From: an uncultured Pseudomonadota bacterium
Lineage (GTDB): Bacteria; Pseudomonadota; Alphaproteobacteria; RF32; CAG-239
Reading direction: 5' to 3'
Assembly (NCBI GenBank): GCA_949297185.1
Contig: CASFRM010000013.1
Location: forward strand, 774 to 64,773
Length of the DNA: 64,000 bases
Below the pieces are notes generated by a model, which worked only from the letters and a program-made list of their open reading frames with translations, had not been told where the DNA came from and searched no databases. Of this stretch, positions 6,915 through 49,316 are shown in pieces. A program made the position numbers and the translations under genes. The number at the start of each line of letters is the position of its first letter. Positions within the stretch are counted from its first letter, which is position 1.

Positions 6915-8680
6915 TGATGGTAAAGCTTAAAATTGATAATTTTGATGTAGAAGTCGAGAGCGGCACCAGTATCTTGGATGCAGCCAGAAAAGTACATATT
7001 GATATTCCGACTTTGTGTAAACACCCTGATGTGGATCCCTCTGCCGGATGCGGAATGTGTATCGTAAAAGTGGGCGGGAGAATATTGCGTTCTTGTTGTA
7101 CTCCGGTAGCAGAAGGTATGGAAGTTGTTACCAATGATGCCGAGTTGCAAGAAACGAGAAAAACCGTTTTGGAACTTATTTTGAGCAACCACCCGAATTA
7201 TTGCTTAAAATGCGCCAGAAGCGGTCAGTGCGAGCTACAAGATTTGGCTATGAGATTTGGTGTTGACCATGATGAAATCAGAAAAATTTTAGCGCCGACC
7301 GAAATAGACGAATCGACTCAAGCAATAGTTTTGGATCCGGCGAAATGTATTGTTTGCGGTCGCTGTGTAGATATTTGCCAAAATCAGCAAAATGTGTGGG
7401 CTTTGAGCTATCAAAACAGAGGTTTGGCAACCAAAATTACCGGTGCCAATGATGCAGATTTGGCAAATACTCCGTGTATTAAATGCGGTCAGTGTGCGGC
7501 GCATTGTCCGACCGGTGCTATAGTTGAATATGACGAAACGCAAAAAGTTTGGGATATGCTCAAAGATAAAGAATTGTTTACCGTAGTGCAAATTGCTCCG
7601 GCGGTCAGAGTGGCTTTGGGCGAAGAATTCGGTTATGATTTCGGTGAAAATTTGACCGGAAAAATCTATGCAGCTTTGCGGAGAATCGGATTTAATAAGG
7701 TTTTTGATACTAACTTCGGTGCAGACTTGACGATTATTGAAGAAGCAAGCGAATTTGTCAGAAGATTTAGTGAAAAAGATAATTTGCCGATGTTTACTTC
7801 TTGCTGTCCGGCATGGGTCGATTATGTGGAAAAATATTATCCGGAGAATATTTCTAACTTGTCGACCTGCAAATCACCGCATCAAATGGTCGGTGCAGTG
7901 GCAAAAACCTATTATGCTCAAAAAGCCGGTGTATCACCGGATAAAATGCGGGTAATTTCGATTATGCCTTGTACGGCAAAAAAATGGGAAGCACATCGTC
8001 ACGAAACCATGTCATCTTCAGGATATCAGGATGTTGATGTGGTGCTGACAACCAGAGAATTGGCCAAGATGATAAGACAAGCCGGCATTAATTTTAAGGG
8101 ATTGCCGGAAGAGGTGGCTGATAATCCATTGGGAGAGTATTCGGGTGCGGCAACCATTTTCGGAGTTACCGGCGGCGTGATGACGGCTGCTTTGCGTACG
8201 GCTTATTTCTATATCACGGGGCAAGAATTGGGAATGCTCAATTTTGCCGAGATTGACGGACTTGACGGTATAAAAGCGGCAGAGGTCGATATCAACGGAA
8301 CCAAGATTAGAATCGCGGTGGTGAATGGTGTCGGCAATGTCGAAGAAGTTATGAGCGCCATAAGAGAGGCTGCAACTAACGGTGAAGAATTGCCGTATCA
8401 TTTTGTTGAGGTTATGGCTTGTCGCGGTGGATGTATAGCCGGCGGCGGTCAGCCCAAAGTAATGATGCATGGTTTGCCCAAACCATGGGGTATTAATGAC
8501 GAAATTCGTAAGCTGCGTTCAAAGGGTTTGAATGATGAAGATGAAGAGGCTAAGAATCGTTTATCTCATCATAATAAATCGATTAAACAAGTTTATGATG
8601 AATTTTTGGGCAAGGCCGGTGAGGGTAAGGCACATGAGTTGTTGCACACCAAGTATCGGCAACGCGACTTATATAAGTAG
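6914..8680 (+). CDS. hydA: [FeFe]-hydrogenase catalytic subunit HydA (M3-type: 2Fe-2S ferredoxin domain, accessory FeS domains, H-cluster)
   Basis: 588 aa. All three H-cluster signatures are present: L1 FTSCCPAWV, L2 IMPCTAKKWE, L3 EVMACRGGCIAGGGQP. The N-terminus has a plant-type 2Fe-2S fold, a His-ligated cluster (HPNYCLKCARSGQC) and two CxxCxxCxxxCP ferredoxin motifs. Confidence 0.92.
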   Translation: MMVKLKIDNFDVEVESGTSILDAARKVHIDIPTLCKHPDVDPSAGCGMCIVKVGGRILRSCCTPVAEGMEVVTNDAELQETRKTVLELILSNHPNYCLKCARSGQCELQDLAMRFGVDHDEIRKILAPTEIDESTQAIVLDPAKCIVCGRCVDICQNQQNVWALSYQNRGLATKITGANDADLANTPCIKCGQCAAHCPTGAIVEYDETQKVWDMLKDKELFTVVQIAPAVRVALGEEFGYDFGENLTGKIYAALRRIGFNKVFDTNFGADLTIIEEASEFVRRFSEKDNLPMFTSCCPAWVDYVEKYYPENISNLSTCKSPHQMVGAVAKTYYAQKAGVSPDKMRVISIMPCTAKKWEAHRHETMSSSGYQDVDVVLTTRELAKMIRQAGINFKGLPEEVADNPLGEYSGAATIFGVTGGVMTAALRTAYFYITGQELGMLNFAEIDGLDGIKAAEVDINGTKIRIAVVNGVGNVEEVMSAIREAATNGEELPYHFVEVMACRGGCIAGGGQPKVMMHGLPKPWGINDEIRKLRSKGLNDEDEEAKNRLSHHNKSIKQVYDEFLGKAGEGKAHELLHTKYRQRDLYK

Positions 8681-8712: not shown

Positions 8713-8744
8713 TGTTCTATAGTGCCACCTTTGGATTACAAACG

Positions 8745-8900
8745 TACTGTCACCCTCGGACTTGTTCCGAGGGTCTACCCTATATTGTCATCCTCGGATT
8801 TATTCCGAGGATCTCATGAGTATTGGCACATTGTTTTACTAGATTCTCGGGACAAGCCCGAGAATGACTAAAATGAAAAACATGCCCGAGAATGACATTA
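8745..8900. repeat. Cluster of short REP-like palindromic elements (TGTCA-YCCTCGGR-loop-YCCGAGGR and the inverted TTCTCGGG-loop-CCCGAGAA-TGACA form)
   Basis: Three full hairpins (8753-8773, 8791-8811, 8844-8864) and a partial copy (8884-8897) share a CCGAG / CTCGG core. They lie between convergent hydA and the flagellin-like gene. Confidence 0.6.
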
Positions 8901-32457: not shown

Positions 32458-33567
32458 ATGAAAGCAAATTCTATTCTCGGCCGCTATTTAATTAAGCAAA
32501 TAGTATTTAACTTTTTGGCGGTGTTGTTGGTTATATTAGGCATCATCTTTTTGTTTGAGATGGTGGAAAGATTGCGTCGTATTGCCGGACATCCGGATTT
32601 GGATGTGTGGTTTGCAGTGCAGCTTGCGGTGGCAAGGTTGCCGAAAACTGCCGAACAGGTGTTTCCGTTTGTGATGATGATTGCGGCAATGATAACTTTT
32701 TGGAAGTTAAGCAAAACCAATGAATTTGTGGTAATGCGTGCCGCCGGTGTTTCAATCTGGGATTTCTTGTCGCCGGTGTGTTTGGCAACATTTGTAATCG
32801 GTATTATAAATGTTACCATGGTTAATCCGGTGGCAGCCGATTTGTATAATATGTTTGAAGTTTTGGAACGGAGAATGGATAATAAAGACCCTTCGGCAGT
32901 CATGTTTTCGGACGACGGGTTATGGATAAGAGAATCCATAGACAATAATAAGGTTATGGTAATGCAGGCCAAAACTTTGCAGCAAGAAAAAAACGGTAAC
33001 TTGTTGTTGCGAGGGGTGAGTATAAGCGAAATAGATGAAAAATCTCGACCCATAAGACAGATTGAGGCATTTGCCGGAGTATTGGAAAAAGGCTTTTTTG
33101 ATTTGAAAGATGTTGCGATTTATACCGCCGGTAAACCCGTTGAAAAATTAGGTAATATGCAATACAAAACGGTTTTGGATATGAGTAAAATTCAAGATAA
33201 TTTCTTGGAACCGGAAGCAATATCTTTTTGGAAGCTGCCGAAAGTGATAAGTTTTTATGATAAGTCGGGATTTGCAATACAGAGACATCAGATGCGTTTT
33301 TGGTCTTTGGTGGTTTCACCGTTTTTCTTGGTAGCCATGGTAATGATGGCGGCGGTGTTTGCTTTGCGTCCGAATAATCGTCGCGGCGGGGTTATGTTCT
33401 TAATCGTTGGCGGTATTGTTACCGGTTTTTCGGCTTATTTCTTATCTCAGGTGGTTTATGCCATGGGTACCAGTGATAATCTTCCGGTTGGTCTTGCGGT
33501 TATTGCACCCACAGTTATTGCTGCTTCTATAGCAGTATCATTGTTGCTTCATTTGGAAGACGGGTAA
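32458..33567 (+). CDS. lptF: LPS export ABC permease, YjgP/YjgQ family (second LptF/LptG paralog)
   Basis: 369 aa with a six-TM permease topology and a periplasmic insert. It is paralogous to ORF 3450-4586. Confidence 0.7.
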   Translation: MKANSILGRYLIKQIVFNFLAVLLVILGIIFLFEMVERLRRIAGHPDLDVWFAVQLAVARLPKTAEQVFPFVMMIAAMITFWKLSKTNEFVVMRAAGVSIWDFLSPVCLATFVIGIINVTMVNPVAADLYNMFEVLERRMDNKDPSAVMFSDDGLWIRESIDNNKVMVMQAKTLQQEKNGNLLLRGVSISEIDEKSRPIRQIEAFAGVLEKGFFDLKDVAIYTAGKPVEKLGNMQYKTVLDMSKIQDNFLEPEAISFWKLPKVISFYDKSGFAIQRHQMRFWSLVVSPFFLVAMVMMAAVFALRPNNRRGGVMFLIVGGIVTGFSAYFLSQVVYAMGTSDNLPVGLAVIAPTVIAASIAVSLLLHLEDG

Positions 33568-33727
33568 AAAACGCGTATAATGGCTCATCTAAAGCGATTT
33601 TTCGCCGATGAATTAAAAAAATACTGGATTTTTAAATTTTTTCTGTTATAAAACAGAACATATTAGATGTGAATATTGTGAAAGTGGGGCCGAAAGCTCC
33701 GCTTTTTGTTTAGGGAGAATCGATATT

Positions 33728-40978: not shown

Positions 40979-42088
40979 ATGGGATTTAATTGCGGTATTG
41001 TCGGATTGCCTAATGTGGGAAAATCTACTTTGTTTAATGCCTTAACTCAAACTATTGCGGCACAGGCAGCCAATTTTCCGTTTTGTACGATTGAACCAAA
41101 TACCGGCAGGGTGGCAGTACCGGATGAACGCTTACAAAAGCTTGCCGATATTGTAAAGCCTAAGCAAATTGTGCCAACCCAACTCGAATTTGTTGATATT
41201 GCCGGATTGGTCAAAGGTGCTTCCAAAGGCGAGGGTTTGGGCAACCAGTTTTTGGCCAATATTCGTGAGGTAGATGCCATAATCCATGTGTTGCGTTGTT
41301 TTGAAGATGAAAATATTACCCATGTTGAGGGTTCGGTCGATCCTATTCGCGATGCCGAAATTGTTGAAACCGAGTTAATGATTGCCGATTTGGAATCTTT
41401 GGAAAAAAGGTTTGATCAGGCTCAGAAAAAAGCCAAAGGCGGTGATAAAGAGGCCATACTCAATGTATCGGTTATGGGACCGATTATCGAGGCTTTGAAA
41501 ATGGGACAGCCGGCTCGTACTGCCGCTCCCGATGAAAGCAATAAAGATGCTTATAAAACCTATAAAATGTTGCAGCTTTTGACTGCAAAGCCGGTGTTGT
41601 ATGTATGTAATGTCGATGAAGCCGCGGCTGCCGATGGCAACGAGTTTTCTAAAAAAGTATTTGAAAAGGCCAAAGAAGAAAACGCTCGTGCGGTAATTAT
41701 TTCGGCGGCAATAGAATCGGAAGTTGCACAGCTTGATGATGAAGCTGAAAAGAAAGAATTTTTGGAAACATTGGGGCTAAAAGAAACCGGATTGTCAAAG
41801 ATTATTCGTGAGGGTTACAATCTTTTGGGGTTGCAAACTTACTTTACAGCCGGTCCGAAAGAGGTCAGAGCTTGGACATTTGTTAAAGGTTCGAAAGCAC
41901 CGGTTTGTGCCGGTATCATTCACTCGGACTTTGAACGCGGCTTTATTCGTGCCGAAACCATCTCTTATGATGATTTTGTGACTTTGGGCGGCGAGCAGGC
42001 ATGCAAAGAAGCCGGCAAGGTGCGTTCCGAAGGAAAAGAGTATGTGGTGCAAGATGGCGATTTGCTGAACTTTTTATTCAATGTTTAG
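40979..42088 (+). CDS. ychF: Ribosome-binding ATPase YchF; start moved to the ATG at 40979, ORF begins at 40946
   Basis: [22 protein letters not shown] is the canonical N-terminus. A GGAGAG RBS precedes it. There is a C-terminal TGS domain. Confidence 0.9.
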
Positions 42089-42232
42089 CGGATTTCTACT
42101 TGTGTATTTACTCCTCATGTACCTCTTTTGTGTACACCTTCGTCGTAAATATACTGCGTATTAATTTCGCTAAACATTAAATAAACAAACAAGAGCGGAT
42201 TCCTACTGGTATATTTACTCTTCGTATAACTT
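42088..42232. repeat. Two imperfect 33-bp direct repeats (GCGGATTYCTACTKGTRTATTTACTCYTC) bracketing an AT-rich segment
   Basis: Copy 1 runs 42088-42120, overlapping the ychF stop. Copy 2 runs 42195-42227. About 30 of 33 positions are identical. Copy 1 is followed by CATGTAC...GTGTACAC. Confidence 0.5.
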
Positions 42233-42262
42233 TTAAAACTTTCTTGTTTATAGGATATAAAA

Positions 42263-45186: not shown

Positions 45187-46236
45187 ATGAAAGAATTTTT
45201 TGCCAAATATAAGATCGATGAGGATGTTATCGCCGTCGGGGTATCCGGAGGAGCGGATTCTTTGGCATTGGCCTTATTGTTACAACAAGCCGGAAAAAAG
45301 GTCGTCGCTTTGACGGTTAACCACGGCTTGCGAAAAGAAGCTCAAGATGAGGCGGAATATGTGGCTCAAATTATGGCAGAAAATAAAATAGAACATCATA
45401 TTTTGTTTTGGCAGGGTGAAAAACCTAAAAAAGGAATCGAAGAAGCCGCCAGAGAAGCCAGATATAATTTGTTATTTGATTTTTGTAGGCAAAACGATAT
45501 TAAAGTTTTGGCTACCGGACACCATATGCGAGATCAGGCCGAAACTTTTTTGCTAAGGCTGGCTCGAGGCAGCGGAGTGTTTGGTTTGAGCGGAATTTTG
45601 CCGGTCAGCAAGCGGCAAGGAATTAAAATCATCAGACCATTGATTAATACTCATCCCGATGAGATGAAAAAATTTTTGCTTAATCAAGGTATCAAATGGG
45701 TTGAAGACCCGATGAATGGTGATGAGGATTTTCTCAGAGTAAAGATGCGTAAATTTCTGCCGGAACTTGCAAAAATCGGTATTGATGAAAAAAGGTTGGC
45801 ACAAACGGCGGCGACACTCCTTAAAACTAGAGAATTTATTCAAAAAGAGGTTGATTCCTTTGTAAAATCTTGTGTCAGAAATTGGGACAATGTAGCGGTA
45901 AGTTTGTCGTGGCATAAATTAAAATCCTTGGATTTAGAGATAAGCAGACGAGTTTTAAGCGATTTGATTTGCCGGATAGGTAATGAAGATTATGCTCCTA
46001 AAGCCGAAGAGCTGGAAAGAGTTTTGACCGAAGATGATGATTTTAAGGGTTGCACTTTGGGCAAATGTGAATTACTTTGGGCGGCAAAAAGATTGTGGAT
46101 TATACCGCAAGATGAAACAAATGAACTTATGAGCAAAAGTTGTTGGGATGATTTTGTAGAGGCTCATCCGCAGTATAAAAACGCCGGACTGCCTTATAAG
46201 GTCAGACGGGCATTGTGGCAGAATTTGAAGGATTAA
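45187..46236 (+). CDS. tilS: tRNA(Ile)-lysidine synthase TilS
   Basis: 349 aa with the PP-loop VGVSGGADSLAL. Confidence 0.8.
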   Translation: MKEFFAKYKIDEDVIAVGVSGGADSLALALLLQQAGKKVVALTVNHGLRKEAQDEAEYVAQIMAENKIEHHILFWQGEKPKKGIEEAAREARYNLLFDFCRQNDIKVLATGHHMRDQAETFLLRLARGSGVFGLSGILPVSKRQGIKIIRPLINTHPDEMKKFLLNQGIKWVEDPMNGDEDFLRVKMRKFLPELAKIGIDEKRLAQTAATLLKTREFIQKEVDSFVKSCVRNWDNVAVSLSWHKLKSLDLEISRRVLSDLICRIGNEDYAPKAEELERVLTEDDDFKGCTLGKCELLWAAKRLWIIPQDETNELMSKSCWDDFVEAHPQYKNAGLPYKVRRALWQNLKD

Positions 46237-46237
46237 A

Positions 46238-46714
46238 ATGGCAAAGGCTAAAAGAAAATCGGATTTTATTGTCAGTGGTTTGGTGGCACAAAACCGTCGT
46301 GCTAATTTTGATTATTTGATTGAAGAAAAATTTGTGGCCGGTTTGCAGCTTTTGGGAACTGAGGTTAAGTCTTTACGGCTTGGGCATGCCAATATCAATG
46401 ATGCATATGGTATTGAACGAAACGGCGAAATTTTTATGGCCAATATGTTTATTGCCGAGTATGCCAACAAGGGATATTCTTCACATGCCGAAAAGCGCGA
46501 ACGCAAGCTGTTGCTTACCAAAAAAGAAATAAGAGATATTATGAACGCTTTGGCCAAAAAGGGAGCAACCTTGGTAGCGATAAGATTGTTTTTTGACAAT
46601 CGCGGCAGAGCCAAGCTCGAGGTTGGGCTTGGTCGAGGCAAAAAGAATTATGATAAGAGAGAGACGATTAAGAATCGCGAACTCGATAGAAAAATACGTC
46701 TAAAGGATTTCTAA
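46238..46714 (+). CDS. smpB: SsrA-binding protein SmpB
   Basis: 158 aa (GTEVKSLR, KLLLTKKEI motifs). Confidence 0.9.
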   Translation: MAKAKRKSDFIVSGLVAQNRRANFDYLIEEKFVAGLQLLGTEVKSLRLGHANINDAYGIERNGEIFMANMFIAEYANKGYSSHAEKRERKLLLTKKEIRDIMNALAKKGATLVAIRLFFDNRGRAKLEVGLGRGKKNYDKRETIKNRELDRKIRLKDF

Positions 46715-47043
46715 AGCAGCTTTGTGCGGTCTCGCAAAATTCATGTACTGCTTTGTACACTAAAATTTTGCTCACCTTCAAATCCACTTTATAAATCTCT
46801 TTATCCGTATTTTTCTTGAAGCAGCAAAGGATTTCTAAAGCAGCTTTGTGCGGTCTCGCAAAATTCATGTACTACTTTGTACACTAAAATTTTGCTCACC
46901 TTCAAATCCACTTTATAAATCTCTTTATCCGTATTTTTCTTGAAGCAGCAAAGGATTTCTAAAGCAGCTTTGGCGGTCTCGCAAAATTCATGTACTGCTT
47001 TGTACACTAAAATTTTGCTCACCTTCAAATCCACTTTATAAAT
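46703..47043. repeat. 124-bp tandem repeat, 2.75 copies, beginning inside the last codons and stop of smpB
   Basis: Copies start at 46703, 46827 and 46951, giving a 124-nt period. Copy 2 differs from copy 1 by one substitution. Copy 3 has a 1-nt deletion and is truncated at about 47043. Each copy starts AAGGATTTCTAA, which is the smpB C-terminal K-D-F-stop. Confidence 0.9.
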
Positions 47044-47045
47044 AT

Positions 47046-49316
47046 CTACAAAACTTCGCGACGGCCAACATGGTCTGCGGCAGAAACTATGCCCTCGGCT
47101 TCCATGCGGTCAATAATTGAGGCCGCTCGGTTGTATCCTATTCTTAATCTTCTTTGGACATAGCTGATGGAAGCTTTCTTGTCGTTTTGTACAATTTGAA
47201 CAGCTTGGCGATACAAGTCTTCGTCACTGCTGCCCCCTCCGAAATCGCCATTGTCAAATACTGCTCCGCCACCGGATTTGCTGTCATTTAATTCGCCTTC
47301 GGTTACGGCCTCAACATATTCGGGTTGTTTTTGCTTTTTCAAGAACTCAACAATTTGCTCAACTTCGCTATCTTTGACAAAAGGTGCATGAACACGCAAC
47401 GGACGTTGTCCGGCCGGCATATAAAGCATATCTCCCATGCCGAGTAATTGTTCGGCACCTTGCTCACCCAAAATGGTGCGGCTGTCTATTTTTGAGGTTA
47501 CTTGATAGCTGATACGGGTCGGGAAGTTGGCCTTAATCGTACCGGTGATAACATCAACCGATGGTCTTTGCGTCGACATAATCAAGTGAATACCTGCGGC
47601 ACGAGCCATTTGCGCCAAACGCTGAATTGCCGCTTCGACCTCTTTGCCGGCAACCAACATCAAATCGGCCATTTCATCAACCACAATCACAATATAAGGC
47701 ATTGGGGTTAAGTCGAGTTCTTGCTCTTCGTATATCGGTTTGCCGGTTTCCATATCAAAGCCGGTTTGAACCGTGCGGGTTATTTTTTCGCCGCTGCTTC
47801 GCAATTCTTCAAGTCGTTGGTTGTAACCGCTGATGTTGCGAACATTTAACTGAGCCATGGCACGATAGCGGTCTTCCATCTCTTTAACCGCCCATTTTAG
47901 ACCGATAACCGCTTTGGACGGGTCGGTAATAACCGGAGTAAGTAAGTGCGGAATGCCGTTGTACATGGTAAATTCCAGCATCTTGGGGTCTATCATTATC
48001 AGTTTGCACTCATCGGGACGCATACGGTACAAAAGCGAAATTATCATCGAGTTAACACCGACAGACTTACCGGAACCGGTGGTACCGGCAACCAGTAAGT
48101 GAGGCATTTTTGATAAATCGGCATAGGTGTTTTTGCCACCGATATCCTTACCCAAACTTATGGTCAGAGCGGCTTTGGCGTTTTTAAAATCATCACTTTC
48201 CAGTAAATCACGCAGATACACAATTTCGCGGGTGGAGTTGGGGAGTTCGATACCGATGGTATTTGACCCCGGAACAACCGCAATACGAACCGAGACCGCA
48301 CTCATGGAGCGAGCAATATCATCAGACAATCCAATTACACGAGCCGTTTTGGTGCCTGGTGCCGGTTCAAGCTCGTAAAGAGTAACTACGGGGCCTGGAC
48401 GAATCTGTACTATTTTGCCCGATACGCCGAATTCTTGCAGAACTTCTTCTAATTTGGCGGCAACTTTTTCAAGTTCTTTTTGACTCATGTGCTGCGTGGC
48501 TTTGTCTTTTGCGGCAGATAACAAGTTAATATCGGGAAATTCGTAGCCATCATCTATCTTGCTGACCGGTTTAGCAATCTTTATTGCTGCCGGAGCAGGT
48601 GCGTCCTTATCTTCTTTACTTTCGCGTAGTTTGGGTTCTTTGCGAGTTTTGGTCGGTTTTGTTGAGGCTTTTTTGCCTTTTATTTGGGAACCGAAAGAGT
48701 ATAGGTTGCGGCTGCCGTTGACGAGCATGAGTAAAATACCGGCAATGAATAAAACAATTTTTTTGCTTAATTTGTACCAACTGCTGATGTTGATTCCGCA
48801 AGCAAAATTAAATGAAATCAACGCAAGAGCAAACATTATGAAGCCTAAGATAATTCCATGATAAGCAAAGGGGTATATTCTGGAGGCTAAACTTAGGAAT
48901 TGCCGGGTGAAAAATACGCCGATGTTGCCGCCGAAACTAAATCTATCTATTTCGCCGATACTTAAGTCAAAAAACGAAGATAGGCAAACAGAGCCTAAGA
49001 TAAAAGCAAAAATGCGACCGTAAGCATGAACAAAGGTTTTGTATCTTAAAATTTCGTATCCCCATACTAAAGGAGCTATTAAAAATATTGCCAATCCTAG
49101 TCCAAACCAACTTAGAACAAAACTTGCCGCATAGGCTCCGTTTGCTCCCAATAGGTTGTTGATGGGAAGGGAATTGGCTATGTTGTAGCCGGAATCGCGA
49201 CTGTCATAAAACAGGCACGAAAATATCAGGAATGTTGCTGATAGTATAAAAAATACACCAAGTCCGAAAGTTAGAAGTTTGGCGAAAAGTGTTTTTCCTT
49301 TTTTGCGTTTAGCCAT
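47046..49316 (-). CDS. ftsK: DNA translocase FtsK
   Basis: 756 aa with N-terminal TM segments, a linker and a C-terminal motor (AGTTGSGKSVGVN Walker A, gamma domain). Confidence 0.9.
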   Translation of the reverse strand: MAKRKKGKTLFAKLLTFGLGVFFILSATFLIFSCLFYDSRDSGYNIANSLPINNLLGANGAYAASFVLSWFGLGLAIFLIAPLVWGYEILRYKTFVHAYGRIFAFILGSVCLSSFFDLSIGEIDRFSFGGNIGVFFTRQFLSLASRIYPFAYHGIILGFIMFALALISFNFACGINISSWYKLSKKIVLFIAGILLMLVNGSRNLYSFGSQIKGKKASTKPTKTRKEPKLRESKEDKDAPAPAAIKIAKPVSKIDDGYEFPDINLLSAAKDKATQHMSQKELEKVAAKLEEVLQEFGVSGKIVQIRPGPVVTLYELEPAPGTKTARVIGLSDDIARSMSAVSVRIAVVPGSNTIGIELPNSTREIVYLRDLLESDDFKNAKAALTISLGKDIGGKNTYADLSKMPHLLVAGTTGSGKSVGVNSMIISLLYRMRPDECKLIMIDPKMLEFTMYNGIPHLLTPVITDPSKAVIGLKWAVKEMEDRYRAMAQLNVRNISGYNQRLEELRSSGEKITRTVQTGFDMETGKPIYEEQELDLTPMPYIVIVVDEMADLMLVAGKEVEAAIQRLAQMARAAGIHLIMSTQRPSVDVITGTIKANFPTRISYQVTSKIDSRTILGEQGAEQLLGMGDMLYMPAGQRPLRVHAPFVKDSEVEQIVEFLKKQKQPEYVEAVTEGELNDSKSGGGAVFDNGDFGGGSSDEDLYRQAVQIVQNDKKASISYVQRRLRIGYNRAASIIDRMEAEGIVSAADHVGRREVL

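Follow-up and report, generated by a model that had tools for sequence, protein, structure and literature searches.

A tandem array of gene-end hairpins between smpB and ftsK belongs to a dispersed repeat family of uncultured gut and rumen Alphaproteobacteria

We analysed a stretch of 64,000 nucleotides from an uncultured alphaproteobacterium (RF32; CAG-239; GenBank assembly GCA_949297185.1, contig CASFRM010000013.1, forward-strand positions 774 to 64,773), hereafter the window, in which a tandem repeat occupies the space between the convergent genes smpB and ftsK. The repeat unit is a member of a dispersed and hitherto uncatalogued hairpin family in uncultured gut and rumen Alphaproteobacteria. 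Members of the family fold into a covarying hairpin, stand at gene ends on a fixed strand and form arrays of one recurrent architecture, and the copy number at smpB differs between lineages. Our preferred reading, to which we give a probability of about 0.6, is that the unit is a non-autonomous gene-end hairpin resembling REPINs or miniature inverted-repeat transposable elements (MITEs), which was locally amplified in tandem and acts as a 3'-end stem-loop or terminator between the two convergent genes. The array itself is ordinary for an element of such a kind; it is the family behind it that is new to the catalogues and unusually strict in its rules of placement.

Tandem Repeats Finder places the array at 46702-47047 with a period of 124 nt, 2.8 copies, 98% matches and a score of 671, which makes it by a wide margin the strongest tandem array of the window. 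A repeat search gave copies at 46702-46825, 46826-46949 and 46949-47072, spaced by 124 and then by 123 nt. A preliminary description of the window had counted 2.75 near-identical copies with a period of 124 nt, one substitution in copy 2 and a 1-nt deletion in copy 3, and these counts were borne out: copy 2 has A in place of G at 46874, within the apical loop, and in copy 3 a single T is missing after 46972, where TTTGTGCGG has become TTTGGCGG. It was also right that every copy starts with AAAGGATTTCTAA, the K-D-F-stop end of smpB, and that the array fills the convergent space, since the gap of 331 nt is repeat throughout and the array adjoins the ftsK stop codon. A 51-nt core of the unit occurs three times, against 0.00 expected in shuffles. 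The Pfam family SmpB was assigned on proteins identical to the smpB product of the window. Minus-strand open reading frames (ORFs) of 66 aa (46668-46868) and 77 aa (46801-47034) lie over the array. They had been called spurious and they look so, as gene callers in other assemblies gave them no Pfam family and the period is not a multiple of 3.

The apex of the hairpin, GCAAAATTCATGTAC-N6-GTACACTAAAATTTTGC, was found in six species-representative metagenome-assembled genomes (MAGs) of uncultured Alphaproteobacteria, in four of them in contexts unrelated to smpB. A looser apex pattern gave 82 metagenome stretches from human gut, rumen and other metagenomes, and single long contigs can hold multiple, widely spaced copies. 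The window holds four occurrences of the apex motif, every one of them on the plus strand, compared to an expectation of 0.155. We aligned 53 non-redundant full-length copies, copy 1 of the window among them. The consensus is a hairpin of about 130 nt with conserved boxes (...TCGTATAAC...CATCTAGAGC...apex...CTCTATCT...TTCTCCGA...) and a stem of about 55 bp that contains conserved internal loops. RNAalifold predicted 30 pairs in this alignment, and 20 of them show compensatory double changes. Paired cells make up 92.6%, compared to 74.6% in shuffles, and the covariation score of 0.468 was reached by none of 500 shuffled alignments (0.145) and fell to 0.09-0.14 when the partners were slid. Conservation peaks at the apex and the internal boxes; the apex is fixed by the search pattern and varies in the matches found by the model only. 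The copies have terminal inverted repeats (e.g. TAAAAGTTCG...CGAACTTTTA), and many have TA at both ends, which may be a target duplication or simply a part of the inverted repeat; no empty site was found.

Copy 1 of the window scores 128 bits over all 136 positions of the covariance model of the family (R1), on par with the training members, a score that is partly by construction because copy 1 is one of the 53 training sequences. Copy 3 stands outside the training set and still scores 88.7 bits over positions 23-115. R1 also picks up more diverged copies in the loci examined; in locus L089, three same-strand copies fall within 12.8 kb. Because the homology to a dispersed family is full-length (128 bits, E 1e-30), the array is not merely a one-off duplication of a gene end. 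We found no catalogued RNA here: Rfam 15 gave 0 matches at gathering score in the window and four loci, a sensitive Rfam scan of 46600-47100 returned chance-level eukaryotic miRNA and snoRNA matches only, and ARAGORN called no tmRNA or tRNA, by which a tmRNA, a tRNA or a known RNA family was ruled out. A phage or plasmid origin was likewise ruled out, by the lack of any match for the apex pattern in IMG/VR and for blastn against phage and plasmid collections; a collection of 5,426 E. coli genomes gave no blastn match either.

Each unit is a long imperfect palindrome that can form a hairpin. The 18 nt at 46688-46705, which encode R-K-I-R-L-K of SmpB, are 89% complementary to 46799-46816 and to 46923-46940, and the array region is much more stably folded than its shuffles (z = -7.1 for the plus strand, -9.8 for the minus strand). 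The preliminary description had proposed a structured 3' untranslated region (UTR) or a small RNA; the strong fold agrees with the former, and there was no evidence for an independent small RNA. The repeat unit spans from inside the 5' arm to 10 nt beyond the 3' arm and, against the local skew, has more C (27) than G (17). The final 29 nt of each full unit (CTCTTTATCCGTATTTTTCTTGAAGCAGC), the junction segment J', are missing from the third copy. This junction has two matches only in the window and no direct-orientation duplicate of local sequence, and it is absent from the lineage with a single copy (L001/L005). Over its first 19 nt it is homologous to the family's 3' basal arm, and it shares 25 of 31 nt with the 3' arm of family member L089. 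The window has GAAAAATACG/CGTATTTTTC where L089 has GAAAAACTCG/CGAGTTTTTC, a matched double change. Judged by this homology, the junction is the element's own 3' basal arm together with a short flank.

The 5' arm has a different origin. The RKIRLKDF tail of SmpB is kept in homologues down to 78% identity, also in L010, which has no hairpin, and the 5' arm is therefore native smpB coding sequence. A C-terminus of SmpB derived from the element was ruled out for this clade by the same observations. The stop codon of smpB is located 25 nt into the stem, a position found at no other locus of the family. The last five residues of SmpB are dimorphic in close relatives (P0001-P0120), with RLKDF in most and R[GS]M[GE]Y in a nested group of equal protein length; an R1 scan of sister lineages with the RGMGY-type tail gave no trace of the element.

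The placement of the family is strict. The nearest upstream gene is on the strand of the element in 59 of 61 loci (97%), while 27 of the downstream genes are on the same strand and 17 on the opposite one (61% same). Since co-orientation is higher with the upstream gene than with the downstream gene, the replication strand by itself does not account for the placement. In 47 of 68 non-redundant loci, an ORF of 100 codons or more has its stop within the element or at its 5' edge. The distance from stop to apex is 44-59 nt in 36 of these 47, which have the stop at the 5' edge, 38-39 nt in five and 27 nt in the smpB group only. The stops are TAA (38) or TAG (9) and never TGA. This is not confined to copies selected by the apex pattern, as 14 of 19 copies found by the model only start within about 10 nt of the stop of a same-strand ORF. 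The upstream genes are diverse and include thyA (thymidylate synthase), cpoB, pheT, gpsA, fusA (EF-G), pnp (PNPase), rpoA and genes for PBP1A and a Lon-like protease; one element follows a phage terminase gene. At 38 of the 39 loci with a length of 5 kb or more, the locus-wide GC skew is positive in the orientation of the element. Insertion in either orientation, which is a trait of Correia-like MITEs, was thus not what we found, given the sense orientation to the upstream gene and the location on the G-rich strand at nearly all loci.

GC skew also bears on the idea that the array is a site-specific recombination site beside ftsK, either dif/Xer-like or similar to integron attC, whose duplicates would stem from integration events. 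There are two inverted arms of about 15 nt around a variable 6-nt centre, the array adjoins ftsK, a first scan apparently gave one exact copy per representative genome, and attC sites also follow co-oriented ORFs. However, the skew in the window is 0.06-0.24 throughout, positive even across the minus-strand ftsK, and shows no sign change at the array. A dif/Xer or other recombinase core site was ruled out by this absence of a switch and by the many copies per genome, several of which can lie on one contig. An attC site was ruled out because the candidate boxes at R'' (RYYYAAC) and R' (GTTRRRY), GTATAAC and GTTCTCC, are not complementary, with the R' consensus matched at 4 of 7 positions, and because the upstream genes are core housekeeping genes instead of cassettes. 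Of all the explanations considered here we find this one the hardest to believe.

Tandem amplification is not peculiar to smpB. Arrays of the family have periods from 106 to 160 nt and are found at L053 (period 128), L077 (118), L102 (128), L087 (131, at least 4.6 copies), L044 (160) and L078. In these the first copy is complete and stands on the gene, and the later copies, set off by a short spacer that derives from the 3' flank, are without the outermost 5' arm. They share the design of the window array, and tandem amplification is a trait of the family. A related subfamily lies in the window itself at the end of ychF. Its hairpin has a 23-nt inverted repeat (87% complementary), a direct repeat at a spacing of 107 and the apex motif, and its 5' arm encodes the native end of YchF (...FLFNV-stop). 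The ychF-end unit is present in 1.4 copies in the window and in 3.3 copies in L001 (1643-1990; period 106, 97% matches). One lineage thus combines a single smpB unit with three ychF units, and in the other the relation is reversed.

We also considered a one-off tandem duplication of the smpB end with a private 3' UTR, unrelated to the rest of the genome. The preliminary description had derived the array from such a duplication, and part of this stands: each unit does begin with the smpB stop region and holds downstream non-coding sequence, and there is no other near-exact copy of the 124-nt unit in the window. The rest does not stand, because the unit has full-length homology to a dispersed family, the junction cannot be derived from a single-copy state, and the same architecture recurs at unrelated genes and at ychF. 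We consider an event private to smpB very improbable.

The copy number was compared among contigs with an identical SmpB, whose gaps of 84, 207 and 331 nt hold a single truncated unit, two and three units, respectively. The contig with three units (L003) matches the window at 100% identity across 7 kb and was for this reason discarded as independent support for three copies. The contig with two units (L002) is from a 99.9%-identical strain and was assembled with k=87, below the period length. In L004 and L006, both identical to the window, the contig breaks within the repeat. L001 and L005, with one truncated unit, are from a sister lineage whose flanks are 89-93% identical to the window. The difference between one copy and at least 2.75 copies among lineages is solid; the difference between two and three within a strain may be an assembly collapse. 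We see no evidence for the phase-variable spacer suggested earlier; the difference of two and three copies comes from short-read assemblies, one of them with k below the period.

It could be asked whether the array is an assembly artefact altogether, with one copy inflated or a copy number that means nothing. Every source is a metagenome assembly from short reads, two of the contigs break inside the repeat, and the k=87 assembly gives two copies. However, the copies carry distinguishing marks, one substitution and one deletion, within one read length or k-mer; J' exists only where at least two units are adjacent; and other loci show arrays of this design in many independent assemblies. An artefact is accordingly quite improbable in our view.

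The comparison of lineages also bears on the age of the array. The element portion is 96-99% identical across lineages whose flanks are only 89-93% identical, and the boundary beside ftsK (...ATAAAT/ATCTAC) is common to the window and L001. Because the 3' arm could not be re-created from a single truncated copy and the ftsK boundary is shared, we infer that the ancestor of the window and L001 lineages may already have held a full element plus a truncated one. In the same way, the junction equals the 3' basal arm of the family and could not be made by simple tandem duplication of a single copy, and the multi-copy state, or at least the full element, would therefore predate the single truncated copy of the sister lineage. 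That copy is probably a collapsed array, and lateral replacement could be an alternative. The near-identity of the units had been taken as a sign of recent or ongoing expansion and contraction. The copy number does differ between related assemblies. Near-identity can come from recent expansion or from homogenisation of an old array. In the sister lineages L016-L033 (SmpB 92-93% identical) the smpB-ftsK gap ranges from 104 to 488 nt and is filled with unrelated palindromic modules (GTCATTCTGAGG...CCTCAGAATGAC and others) in differing numbers. This gap is therefore a hotspot of repeat accumulation.

Copy number could also matter in itself, if the array were a regulatory variable-number tandem repeat that tunes smpB or ftsK, for example through stalling of ribosomes at the stop codon buried in the hairpin and feedback by trans-translation. 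Liang and Deutscher reportedly found in E. coli that a REP hairpin near a stop codon lowers translation and brings in tmRNA-SmpB, and it is the smpB locus alone in the family that has its stop inside the stem in this way. But the family is generic to many genes, and the extra copies lie downstream of the stop and leave the first hairpin unchanged. We hold regulation by copy number to be improbable.

Under our preferred reading, the family would have spread as a non-autonomous, REPIN- or MITE-like DNA element, with dispersal as the only sign of its mobility. The array would then be a local tandem amplification of two complete copies and one 3'-truncated copy of a hairpin of about 130 nt, in which the native smpB end (the last ~9 codons and the stop) serves as 5' basal arm and a 19-nt part of the 29-nt junction as 3' basal arm. 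Arrays of this kind may grow and shrink by replication slippage or by unequal recombination between the units, stimulated by the hairpins, and homogenisation may maintain the near-identity of the units. In transcripts, the hairpins would form stem-loops at gene ends that terminate transcription, protect the 3' end or both, and insulate smpB from ftsK; between these two genes the terminator may be bidirectional. The copy number itself would be of little consequence.

Several observations weigh against this reading. A scan of 46000-47600 for the intrinsic-terminator consensus, which is unable to model long imperfect stems, found no site in the array and one inside smpB. On this result a simple intrinsic terminator appears unlikely, although the long stems are bordered by an A-run and a T-run (AAAA...TTTT). 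Some elements lie within operons, where a strong terminator is unexpected; at the fusA locus the next gene, presumably tuf, begins 43-49 nt past the element. In 52 of 53 members the better fold is that of the strand antisense to the upstream gene (mean -53.2 compared to -41.4 kcal/mol), and this holds in 51 of 53 for the lower stem without the apex. Outside the apex, whose invariance would inflate the count, A.C mismatches (G.U wobbles when read on the opposite strand) number 133 against 63 G.T. These counts share ancestry and are not independent. A plain model of a hairpin in the sense mRNA does not predict such a bias. No transposase turned up, although no search for one was made, and no empty site was found. 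Finally, all source assemblies are short-read, and exact copy numbers, chiefly two or three, are uncertain.

The folding bias is one of the reasons to consider a purely DNA-level selfish element, which we regard as a possible but tentative explanation. Its hairpin would act in single-stranded DNA (ssDNA) as the substrate of a trans-acting HUH/RAYT-like or other transposase, it would have no function in RNA, and the array would be a by-product. The placement would reflect target choice (TA/TAA at stop codons) and the purging of harmful insertions. Replication-coupled ssDNA transposition in IS200/IS605-type elements leaves a single orientation relative to GC skew, and the family has one orientation at 38 of 39 loci. 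The use of TAA and TAG but not TGA, the TA...TA flanks of many elements, the dispersal with subfamilies and the parallels to REPINs, tandem clusters included, all agree with such an element, and the better-folding strand is not the mRNA strand. However, neither a transposase, for which we did not look, nor a pair of empty and filled sites was obtained. The element is better conserved than the flanking genes across lineages of ~90% identity, which suggests a constraint at the level of the host. Moreover, the parental strand exposed at replication forks would be the plus strand, which has the weaker hairpin, and the excess of co-orientation with the upstream gene (97%) over the downstream gene (61%) is not accounted for by the replication strand alone.

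A more elaborate possibility, which we think rather unlikely, is a new non-autonomous class that homes strand-specifically to the TAA or TAG stops of leading-strand genes. Its stem would grow into the coding end by hairpin-templated copying, the functional hairpin would be the antisense one (in ssDNA or as a polar block to antisense transcription), and units carrying a gene end would be copied elsewhere. The idea of a growing stem is based on the 3' arms at smpB and ychF, which are complementary to native coding sequence. In L089, the element after an rsmB-like gene (8343-8477) has a 5' arm identical to the smpB coding end at 22 of 27 nt and reading GKTRLEVF-stop for RKIRLKDF-stop, compared to a family median of 14.5 of 27. 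This arm may be a decayed smpB tail, as if a unit with an absorbed smpB end had been copied to another site.

Turning back to the preferred reading, the family can be compared with known systems. MIRUs of mycobacteria are tandem intergenic units that are oriented with the flanking genes, overlap the upstream stop and vary in copy number between strains; they are not long hairpins and contain small ORFs for translational coupling. The smpB array is also tandem, oriented with the gene and overlapping the upstream stop, with differing copy numbers, but it consists of long hairpins and its period is not divisible by 3. Correia/NEMIS elements of Neisseria and MITEs like them are 100-155 bp long, with terminal inverted repeats and TA ends, and form mRNA hairpins in transcribed intergenic regions; Correia elements take either orientation on insertion and show no tie to stop codons. 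Our family resembles them in size, terminal inverted repeats, TA at both ends and transcribed intergenic sites, but has no sequence similarity to Correia elements and is stop-anchored in a single orientation. Inverted pairs of uptake sequences act as terminators in Neisseria and Pasteurellaceae.

Kingsford 2007 (PMC1852404) presents uptake sequences as gene-end terminators. They resemble our family as conserved sequences embedded in gene-end hairpins of many genes. Those terminators have short GC-rich stems and U-tracts, whereas our stem is ~55 bp long and contains conserved internal loops, and nothing points to DNA uptake. ERIC/IRU (RU-1) elements are given by Delihas 2007 (PMC2759123) as ~127-bp imperfect palindromes of enterobacterial intergenic regions and as MITE-like small mobile sequences. 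They share with our unit the form of an imperfect intergenic palindrome of about the same size, and are not reported to be anchored at stop codons or strictly oriented; our family has no blastn similarity in the 5,426 E. coli genomes. The closest parallel is with REPINs, REP doublets that form hairpins in Pseudomonas and Enterobacteria and occur in ordered tandem clusters that include flanking sequence (Bertels & Rainey 2011, PMC3116915). Both are dispersed, multi-copy, extragenic hairpins (~70-110+ nt in REPINs) with frequent compensatory changes, both have ordered clusters of near-identical tandem units including flanks, and both persist in lineages with an array orientation that follows the replichore (PMC3116915). 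Unlike in REPINs, we recognised no REP 16-25-mer pair or GTAG-type motif and identified no RAYT, though no transposase search was made; our family is ~130 nt long, sits on stop codons, is nearly always sense to the upstream gene and is from another taxon. For each named system at least one defining feature is lacking or not established here; we therefore assign membership in none of them, and the family is filed among the intergenic palindromic repeats, outside REP/RAYT, Correia, ERIC, attC, dif and Rfam.

If the preferred reading is true, a clade of uncultured gut and rumen Alphaproteobacteria would mark the 3' ends of core genes (fusA, rpoA, pnp, pheT, thyA, smpB, ychF and others) with one conserved hairpin module that is strictly oriented with gene and replication strand and readily forms variable tandem arrays. 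It would be a ready marker of gene ends and strand polarity in these MAGs, and would explain recurrent contig breaks and spurious calls of small ORFs. It would also offer a tractable case for target choice of the REPIN type and for domestication as terminators or mRNA stabilisers, and the buried stop of smpB would be a testable route to translational or trans-translation feedback.

The features of the window are collected in Table 1. The decayed member listed there was matched by R1 at 33563-33656 (21.6 bits, E 0.021) and has AT-rich sequence in place of the apex and the 3' arm.

Table 1. Coordinates of the array, its neighbouring genes and the other family members in the window.
Feature	Position	Strand	Remarks
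smpB coding sequence	46238-46714	+	158 aa, stop codon 46712-46714 (ORF list and translation); last ~9 codons (from 46688) are the 5' basal arm of the first hairpin
Complete family element, copy 1, imperfect hairpin of ~135 nt	46686-46820	+	R1 128 bits, E 1.4e-30, model positions 1-136; inverted repeat; fold
Repeat unit 1 (124 nt)	46702-46825	+	AAAGGATTTCTAA ... hairpin ... 3' basal arm and TTGAAGCAGC
Repeat unit 2 (124 nt)	46826-46949	+	A for G at 46874; without its own outermost 5' arm
Repeat unit 3	46950-47045	+	3'-truncated after ...CTTTATAAAT; one T missing; ends 2 nt before the ftsK stop codon
R1 match to unit 3	46955-47046	+	88.7 bits, model positions 23-115 only
Junction segment J'	46797-46825; second copy 46921-46949	+	CTCTTTATCCGTATTTTTC = 3' basal arm, plus TTGAAGCAGC flank
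Conserved apex GCAAAATTCATGTAC-N6-GTACACTAAAATTTTGC	46734-46771; again 46858-46895 and 46981-47018	+	
ftsK	47046-49316	-	Convergent with smpB
Second gene-end hairpin, related subfamily, at the ychF stop (TAG 42086-42088)	42073-42234	+	Hairpin 42073-42185, partial second copy 42194-42234
Decayed family member, 5' arm only (TAAAAAACGCGTATAATGGCTCATCTAAAGCGATTTTTCGCCG)	33565-33605	+	Starts on the TAA of ORF 32458-33567

Some further rearrangements were seen around family elements. In L035 (1-700), a 313-nt tandem duplication carries a family element beside a tRNA-like 3' fragment (GGGTTTGAATCCCGCCACTCCA, opposite strand); ARAGORN called no intact tRNA in this region, which may be an old scar of an integration site. 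In L039 (3600-4200), a direct repeat of ~130 nt lies on both sides of the element and its second copy ends in the apex (GCAAAATTC/TGATCGG), which suggests a rearrangement breakpoint inside the hairpin. In L007 and L038 the 3' arm is replaced immediately past the apex. A different family from the gene-end hairpin is represented at 8740-8900 of the window by a cluster of short GC-rich, REP-like palindromes (GTCACCCTCGGACTTGTTCCGAGGGTC, GTCATCCTCGGATTTATTCCGAGGATC, TTCTCGGGACAAGCCCGAGAATGAC), and an 87.5%-identical copy of this cluster lies downstream of smpB in L007 (3107-3214).

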